From sequence record OR896839.1: a stretch of DNA of 38,265 nt; one strand, 5' to 3'. Made by a program: the position numbers and the translations under genes. The DNA is from Salmonella phage S147_CPL00262. Shown here piece by piece: positions 13,462-15,162 of this stretch (within the stretch, counting starts at the first letter, position 1; each line of letters opens with the position of its first letter). The notes beneath the pieces were generated by a model, which had not been told where the DNA came from, ran no database searches, and saw only the letters and a list, made by a program, of their open reading frames with translations.

Positions 13462-15162
13462 ATGGAACAAGAAAACGACAGTATATTCCTTTACCATATC
13501 CCGTGCGAGAACTGTGGGTCTTCTGATGCTAACTCATTGTTCTCCGATGGTCACACGTACTGTTACGCCTGTGAGAATTGGACGCCGGGGGATGAACAGA
13601 AAGCTGAGCAGTTATCAGCGAGAAGACGTACAGGAGGCAGAAAGCCTATGAGTTATGACGTATGGAATTTCGGTGACAGCAACGGTCGCTACTCTGACCT
13701 GACTGCCCGTGGCATCTCGAAGGAGACGTGTCAAAAGGCTGGCTACTGGCTGGCGAAAGTGGACAACCGAATGTATCAGGTTGCCGACTACCGAGACCAG
13801 AACGGCTCCATCGTGTCACAGAAGGTGCGCGATAAGGACAAGAACTTTAAGACCACCGGAAGCCACAAGAGCGATGCATTGTTCTTGAAGCACCTCTGGT
13901 CTGGCGGTAAGAAAATTGTGGTCACTGAGGGCGAAATTGACGCGCTCACTGTGATGGAACTCCAAGACTGTAAGTACCCGGTCGTATCATTGGGTCACGG
14001 TGCCTCTGCTGCTAAGAAGACATGCGCCGCTAACTATGAATACTTTGACCAGTTCGAGCAGATTATCTTGATGTTCGACATGGATGACGCAGGCCGTAAG
14101 GCAGTCGAAGAGGCCGCACAGGTTCTCCCGGCTGGTAAGGTTCGTGTTGCCGTGTTACCGTGTAAGGACGCCAACGAGTGTCACATCATGGGTGAAGACA
14201 AAGCAATCTTGGAGCAGATCTGGAACGCGAACCCTTGGGTGCCTGATGGCGTTGTCTCTGCGTTGTCACTAAAAGACCGCGTTAAGGAAGCCATGACCTC
14301 CGAGGACGCTGTAGGTTTATTATTCGATGGTTGTCAAGGCCTGAACGATAGAACCTTGGGTGCTCGTGGTGGCGAAGTCGTTATGGTCACTTCCGGTTCC
14401 GGTATGGGTAAGTCAACGTTCGTTCGTCAACAGGCGCTGGCTTGGGGCAAGCGAATGGGTAAACGTGTTGGCCTAGCGATGCTGGAGGAATCCGTTGAGG
14501 ATACCATTCAGGATATGATGGGCCTGAACAATAAGGTTCGTCTGCGTCAATCTGATGAAGTCAAGAAGGCTATCGCAGAGGACGGACGTTTCGATGAATG
14601 GTATGATGAACTATTCGGAGACGATACGTTCCACCTTTATGACTCCTTTGCGGAGGCCGAAGCTGACAGGCTGTTAGCGAAGCTGGCCTACATGCGTACA
14701 GGCTTAGGGTGTGATGTTATAGTGCTCGACCACATCTCAATCGTCGTGTCTGCCTCTGAGGAATCGGATGAGCGTAAGATGATTGACCGCCTCATGACGA
14801 AGCTCAAAGGGTTCGCTAAGTCAACGGGTGTTGTGCTCGTAGTGATTTGTCACTTGAAGAACCCGGAGAAGGGAAAACCACATGAAGAAGGACGCGCTGT
14901 TTCTATTACTGACCTACGTGGTAGCGGTGCCTTGCGTCAGTTATCTGATACTATCATCGCCTTGGAGCGTAACCAGCAAGGTGATATGCCTAACTTGGTG
15001 TTGGTTCGCCTGCTTAAGTGTCGTTTCACTGGCGACACTGGAATTGCTGGATACATGGAATACAACAGAGAAACCGGGTGGCTTGAACCGTCTAGCTACA
15101 CTGGCGAAGAAGGAGAAGGAGATACTGGCTGGACTGAACAAGACGGACAATCAGACTTCTAA
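13462..15162 (+). CDS. 4: DNA primase/helicase, gene 4 (4A form)
   Basis: 566-aa ORF with N-terminal zinc ribbon CENCGSSD...CYAC and helicase Walker A GSGMGKST. Confidence 0.97.
13648..15162 (+). CDS. 4: Helicase-only form 4B from an internal in-frame start
   Basis: In-frame ATG (Met63) preceded by SD CAGGAGG inside gene 4, analogous to T7 gp4B. Confidence 0.55.

Follow-up and report, generated by a model that had tools for sequence, protein, structure and literature searches.

Gene 4 of bacteriophage T7 encodes a 63-kDa primase-helicase (4A) and a 56-kDa helicase (4B), the latter arising from a second, in-frame start at Met64. The 56-kDa form is produced as abundantly as the full-length protein and has full helicase activity without template-directed primer synthesis, its in vivo role being called unknown in 2010 (PMC2910064). 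According to a review, unwinding is coupled to synthesis more effectively when the two forms are mixed than with the 63-kDa form by itself, and the mixed assembly may be a heterohexamer (PMC12593628). The substitution M64L in T7 abolishes gp4B (PMC12658067), and the short form is described as dispensable in a preprint that swaps the names 4A and 4B (bioRxiv 10.1101/2024.07.25.605042). Experimental demonstration of 4B expression is confined to T7. The homologous start in Salmonella phage S147_CPL00262 (sequence record OR896839.1; 38,265 nucleotides, the whole stretch analysed and hereafter the window) is Met63 of gene 4. The ATG at 13648 is assigned, with a probability of about 0.85, as the site at which a T3-like phage would initiate its gene 4B product, the short form, within the gene and in frame. 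This start is the one known for 4B in T7 and T3 and is annotated in sister phages, and its assignment here establishes nothing biologically new.

The closest annotated counterparts are the 4B proteins of T3 (NP_523316; 10856-12370) and phiYeO3-12 (NP_052088; 11592-13106), for which RefSeq carries the note 'in-frame internal initiation', likewise at codon 63, and gp19B of Citrobacter phage SH2. The length and start of 4B in these three phages, members of the same genus, are the same as predicted for the window. The sequence AGAAGACGTACAGGAGGCAG-AAGCCTATG is shared with all three but for one base of the codon next to the Gly-Gly pair, which reads AGA (Arg) in the window and AGC or AGT (Ser) in the others, and the 10-nucleotide (nt) spacer is common to all. 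SH2 gp19B is listed with the ribosome-binding site (RBS) 'GGAGGCAGT...ATG' (PMC4925675). The stretch 13380-15170 of the window matched, at 100% identity, that of Klebsiella phage GlastosBack (OR896841.1, 38,264 bp; window coordinates equal those of the GlastosBack record plus 1), which is classified in Autographiviridae, Studiervirinae, Teetrevirus and is thus T3-like.

Anatomy and strength of the internal start in gene 4

The features that define the site are as follows.

13462 to 15162, plus strand: gene 4 (4A), bifunctional DNA primase-helicase, identified by its open reading frame (ORF), homology, Pfam and PDB

13632 to 13637, plus strand: internal Shine-Dalgarno (SD) sequence AGGAGG, coded by ACA-GGA-GGC (Thr-Gly-Gly), read from the sequence

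13638 to 13647, plus strand: 10-nt spacer CAGAAAGCCT between the SD and the internal start, read from the sequence

13648 to 13650, plus strand: internal ATG, gene 4 codon 63, the predicted 4B start, in frame and aligned to T7 Met64

13648 to 15162, plus strand: predicted 4B product of 504 aa and 55.8 kDa, without the zinc-binding domain (ZBD) and with the RNA-polymerase domain (RPD)/TOPRIM and the helicase

The full-length 4A product has 566 aa, a computed mass of 62.8 kDa and 84% identity to gp4A of T7. Pfam matches, all above gathering scores, were Zn_Ribbon_Prim (11-44), Helic-prim_T7_N (75-133), Toprim (151-240) and DnaB_C (290-506), and PDB chains of T7 gp4 (6n7i and others) matched the protein with E values of 0 to 1e-147. 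The protein has the gp4-family architecture of an N-terminal Zn ribbon, a TOPRIM RNA-polymerase domain and a DnaB-like helicase. The original prediction of an internal start in gene 4 was confirmed in that the ATG at 13648-13650 is in frame as codon 63 of the 566-codon ORF, and alignment with T7 gene 4 paired Met63 of the window protein with T7 Met64 of gp4A. Met63 lies in the ZBD-RPD linker, after the Zn ribbon (11-44) and ahead of the RPD (from residue 75), and residue 1 of the crystallised T7 56-kDa protein (1q57, 503 residues) aligned to window residue 63. The predicted 4B corresponds to residues 63-566 of 4A, with loss of the Zn ribbon and retention of the primase RNA-polymerase/TOPRIM region (75-240). 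Accordingly, the earlier description of a helicase-only product without the zinc ribbon is correct as to the ribbon and valid for function alone as to 'helicase-only', the primase domain itself being kept.

The local sequence at the start is CGT ACA GGA GGC AGA AAG CCT ATG AGT, in which the CAGGAGG reported before was found at 13631-13637. The spacing of 6-7 nt given with it is wrong for this phage, since 10 nt (13638-13647) lie between the final G of AGGAGG and the ATG. As read from the sequence, no other start codon occurs in any frame between the internal SD and 13648. The claim that the T7 arrangement is conserved holds for the homologous start, the SD and the single mRNA and fails for the spacing, which is 10 nt against 7 nt in T7. 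Judged on the sequences compared, the 10-nt spacing is a variant of the T7 arrangement and no ground for exclusion.

The strength of the site was evaluated against 220 in-frame internal ATGs located at least 30 codons from both ends of the 53 predicted plus-strand genes. The duplex of the internal SD with the 3' end of 16S rRNA was computed at -10.3 kcal/mol, which ranked first among the 220 (median -2.8; runners-up -9.2 and -9.0 kcal/mol) and was equalled or exceeded by 13 of the 53 predicted gene starts. The pattern AGGAGG-N4-10-ATG occurred 13 times in the window, always on the plus strand, against 2.05 ± 1.43 expected from shuffled sequences. Gene starts accounted for 11 of these matches, the remainder being the codon-63 site and a match at 16878 in the DNA polymerase gene.

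Two further sites were noted in the course of this comparison. The match at 16878-16890, within the DNA polymerase gene 15839..17953, consists of AGGAGG, 4 nt and an out-of-frame ATG (CAG GAG GCC GGA TGG), and is the sole strong SD-ATG pair of the window that is neither in frame nor at a gene start. In the gene-16-like ORF 31199..35161, TAAGGAG stands 9 nt ahead of the in-frame ATG 34001 (codon 935; site 33979-34003) with a duplex energy of -9.2 kcal/mol, second of the 220 internal ATGs. This ATG may serve as another internal start or may be a chance occurrence.

The transcript that would carry both starts is defined by three further features upstream of codon 63.

13392 to 13414, plus strand: T3-type phage RNA polymerase promoter AATTAACACTCACTAAAGGGATG, the phi3.8 equivalent, driving the gene 4 mRNA, assigned by consensus match and alignment

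13405 to 13433, plus strand: stem-loop AAAGGGA...TCCCTTT in the 5' leader of the 4A/4B mRNA, homologue of RNase III site R3.8 of T3 and phiYeO3-12, assigned by alignment to T3 stem_loop 10616-10642 and by the visible inverted repeat

13447 to 13452, plus strand: 4A SD sequence TAAGGA, 9 nt ahead of ATG 13462, read from the sequence

The core of the promoter differs from the T3 consensus by one mismatch and aligns with the annotated phi3.8 promoters of T3 and phiYeO3-12; the same 22-mer is listed elsewhere as 'phiGene 4' (PMC4283147). By homology, the stem-loop probably functions like RNase III site R3.8. The 4A SD forms a duplex of -5.9 kcal/mol with the 3' end of 16S rRNA, weaker than that of the internal SD. 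A window-wide scan revealed 14 T3-type promoters, among them the one ahead of 4A, placed by the scan at 13393-13412, and the next at 15214, with none at up to 3 mismatches between 13462 and 13648. A separate 4B transcript was rejected on this basis, and both products would derive from one mRNA.

Conservation of the site and competing explanations

The comparative sample was assembled from two IMG/VR scans and annotated GenBank regions and comprised 160 loci (designated here by L numbers) that encode 65 different linker peptides. In all sampled enterobacterial Studiervirinae lineages except Unyawovirus, GGAGG preceded an ATG or GTG in frame, although the linker peptide around the conserved GGAGG varied greatly in sequence and length. 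Where Met was replaced (L024, L042, L073 and L092-L101), the replacement was always GTG, another start codon. The spacer assumed two states one codon apart, 7 nt in T7 and many others and 10 nt in the T3-like group (Teetrevirus), a large K11-like 'GGNYGM' group, L066, L092-L101 and L143; the exceptions were 8 nt in L062 and 4 nt in L035. The SD-forming Gly codon was GGA in 89 of 96 unique sequences, and the other 7 had GGT-GGA-GGT, in which GGAGG is still formed, while the next Gly codon was free to vary at its third position. Four invariant control glycines of the same genes had mixed codons with GGA at 1-35%, and GGA accounts for 13.5% of the Gly codons in the window. The lineages share ancestry and the codon counts are consequently not independent; the relevant control is the contrast with these synonymous sites. 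In L062, GGAGG was kept in a shifted codon register, GGG-GAG-GGA, encoding Gly-Glu-Gly. These patterns indicate that the conserved element is an RBS selected at the nucleotide level rather than a peptide motif.

The Unyawovirus phages of Pectobacterium, DU_PP_II (L081), phiPccP-1 (L168) and P15_PC2B6 (L167), have neither GGAGG nor an in-frame start in the linker, and their remaining Gly-Gly codons are GGC or GGT. They were isolated independently, in Korea and Sri Lanka, and, to judge from these sequences, look like natural 4A-only phages. Pektosvirus Q19 (L169), a relative of Unyawovirus, has GGAGG repeats followed by 10 nt and a GTG in frame, which encodes the conserved Val in VWNFG. Distant environmental relatives with at most 59% identity are also without the arrangement of SD and internal start.

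The earlier characterization of codon 63 as a textbook internal initiation site is supported by the homology with T7, by the nucleotide-level selection of the SD and by the annotation of the identical site in T3 and phiYeO3-12. Several observations nevertheless weigh against its use as the 4B start. The 10-nt spacer is slightly above the range at the gene starts of the window, where spacing at 40 scored starts was 4-9 nt in 39 (mode 6-7, with a single outlier of 12), and the efficiency could fall below that of T7. In the global fold of the leader and 5' coding region the internal SD, with an unpaired probability of 0.2, was mostly paired; a small, weak hairpin of 4 bp, AGGC/GCCU, can form, and the local RNA fold around the start was not significant (z = -0.74). 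The 4B annotations of T3 and phiYeO3-12 appear to be homology-based, the GenBank record of GlastosBack contains a single full-length 'DNA primase/helicase' coding sequence (CDS) with 4B unannotated, and direct protein-level or ribosome-profiling support for 4B in any Teetrevirus was not found in the accessible literature. A structured RNA element at the internal start was also considered and rejected, as the fold was at the z value given, the 4-bp hairpin was the only one and accessibility was unremarkable.

The spacer is central to one alternative, which holds that the site initiates much more weakly than that of T7, so that 4B would be a minor product in T3-like phages and 4A:4B would be set at another ratio than the approximately 1:1 of T7. 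Spacing in E. coli has its optimum at about 5-9 nt with efficiency dropping beyond, the 10 nt found here lies outside the range of this genome's own gene starts, and the two discrete spacer states across lineages fit a tuning parameter. The 10-nt state is nonetheless stable in several large lineages, those enumerated above, the internal SD is a full 6-mer far stronger than the 4A SD, and a bona fide gene start of the window (37939) uses AGGAGG with 9 nt; a markedly weakened site is considered unlikely. It is very improbable that GGAGG and ATG are present by coding coincidence, merely to encode a Gly-Gly...Met linker peptide without ribosome initiation. The motif does lie inside a coding region and encodes a conserved Gly-Gly, but GGAGG is retained while the rest of the linker is highly variable, and the first Gly codon always keeps A at its synonymous third position whereas the control Gly codons drift. 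A coding coincidence is likewise at odds with the other codon register of GGAGG in L062, with the exchange of Met for GTG alone, with the joint loss of SD and Met in Unyawovirus and with T7 genetics, which prove the homologous codon to be a start.

Least probable of all is an action of the internal SD on elongating ribosomes, as a pause for folding of the zinc ribbon, or a coupling of initiation at 13648 to termination of a 4.1-like ORF in the +1 frame. Such an ORF is present at 13514..13651, with 45 codons, a GTG start and a TGA that overlaps the 4B ATG (ATGA); the same overlap joins gene 4.1 and 4B in T7, and ATGA or GTGA stands at the site in many lineages. The overlapping TGA is absent in other lineages (ATGTCx), however, the +1 frame is open for just 6-21 codons and ATG-less in several lineages, and the +1 ORF of the window starts with GTG and has no evident SD. 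Nor would pausing alone account for a start codon conserved at a constant distance, either 7 or 10 nt. Conservation of the +1 ORF was judged on loci with a correctly anchored 4A start, mis-anchored loci such as T7 being excluded. Since the +1 ORF is not conserved, coupling was dismissed as a mechanism for the lineages in general, and ORF 13514..13651 is probably not a gene.

Under the favoured assignment of ATG 13648 as the 4B start, 30S subunits would bind AGGAGG at 13632-13637 on the mRNA that also encodes gp4A, and initiation in frame at codon 63 would yield a 504-aa protein of approximately 56 kDa, co-linear with residues 63-566. By analogy with T7, the short form would be incapable of template-directed priming for want of the N-terminal zinc ribbon, while retaining the RNA-polymerase domain, the linker and the hexameric helicase. 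The two forms may co-assemble or coexist in hexamers, again as for T7, which would provide six helicase subunits with fewer zinc-finger primase heads. Production of 4B by this phage in infected Klebsiella, its amount and its role are inferred by homology, and with a spacer of 10 nt and a weak SD for 4A the ratio of 4A to 4B need not equal that of T7.

Zinc-ribbon exchange and annotation of gene 4

The block specific to 4A, comprising the 4A RBS and zinc-ribbon codons 1 to approximately 48 (~13415-13606), was found to be mosaic with two alleles. Type A (YHIPC..SLFSDGH..CYVCE.W) occurs in the window and phiYeO3-12, and type B (FHAPC..SVYSDGH..CFVCEHRVP) occurs in T3 and SH2. In four pairs with swapped alleles (window/L003, L002/L009, L021/L026 and L024/L042) the zinc ribbons were 62-67% identical and the rest of the protein approximately 99% identical. 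The 3' junction, read in the pairs window/L003, L021/L026 and L024/L042, is located 10-40 nt before the internal SD, after which nucleotide identity is approximately 100%. The alleles might differ in their use of priming sites, since the zinc ribbon of T7 contributes to template recognition by the primase. No earlier description of zinc-ribbon module swapping in T7-like phages was found in a limited literature search, which is not proof of novelty. A recombinant origin of T3 is reportedly argued for in the T3 genome paper. An apparent stand-alone zinc-ribbon module in Escherichia phage ST2 (H39, locus L084; OM982647.1, a 171-kb 'partial genome') was dropped. The end of that record contains a T7-like endolysin, a promoter and the 5' part of gene 4 to approximately the 4B start, and it directly adjoins an inverted gene-16-like gene, suggesting a chimeric assembly.

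A more speculative reading, possible and rather doubtful, is that the internal RBS combines the roles of evolutionary joint and tuning knob. The 7- or 10-nt spacer could set a lineage-specific 4A:4B stoichiometry, the 4A block, swapped in at least four lineage pairs, would be an exchangeable cassette and the Unyawovirus phages would be naturally 4A-only. If true, this reading makes the long-standing question of the purpose of 4B testable by comparison, for which the spacer dichotomy, the loss in Unyawovirus and the cassette exchange are natural material.

The annotation of gene 4 was found to be inconsistent in T3-like phages, with 4A alone in GlastosBack, a CDS of 4B length alone in AP5 and both products in T3, phiYeO3-12 and SH2. 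The GlastosBack record should carry a 4B CDS at record positions 13647-15161, equivalent to 13648-15162 of the window. The opposite error is present for vB_YenP_AP5, whose gene 4 is listed just as a 4B-length CDS of 55.9 kDa (PMC4283147). A further discrepancy was noted in the region of gene 2.5 (11674..12372, plus strand), opposite which the window has an antisense ORF of 416 codons (11197-12447, minus strand). The GlastosBack record lists a minus-strand 'hypothetical protein' at 11196-12416, and the plus-strand SSB-like gene 2.5 is missing among the features listed there. The minus-strand entry is probably an annotation artefact, because all other genes of the genome are on one strand.

Comparison with described internal starts

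The site shares with that of T7 a GGAGG-type SD formed from a Gly-Gly pair in the ZBD-RPD linker and the position of both starts on one mRNA. The predicted short product has 504 aa, and the annotated T7 4B CDS (11754-13265) has 503 codons. The T7 spacer is 7 nt (GGAGG-TAAACCA-ATG) and that of the window is longer because of one extra codon (GG-R-K-P-M, compared with GG-K-P-M in T7). The 4A SD is the weak TAAGGA in the window and GGAGG in T7. Unlike in T7, the upstream gene 3.8 is absent and no phi4c-type promoter is present inside gene 4 at up to 3 mismatches. Outside the phages, E. coli infB, which encodes the IF2 isoforms, and clpB each give rise to two co-linear proteins from in-frame internal starts. 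In these genes, as in gene 4, one ORF contains a second, internal SD and start, and the short product lacks an N-terminal domain; the proteins are unrelated to gp4, and the likeness is one of mechanism only.

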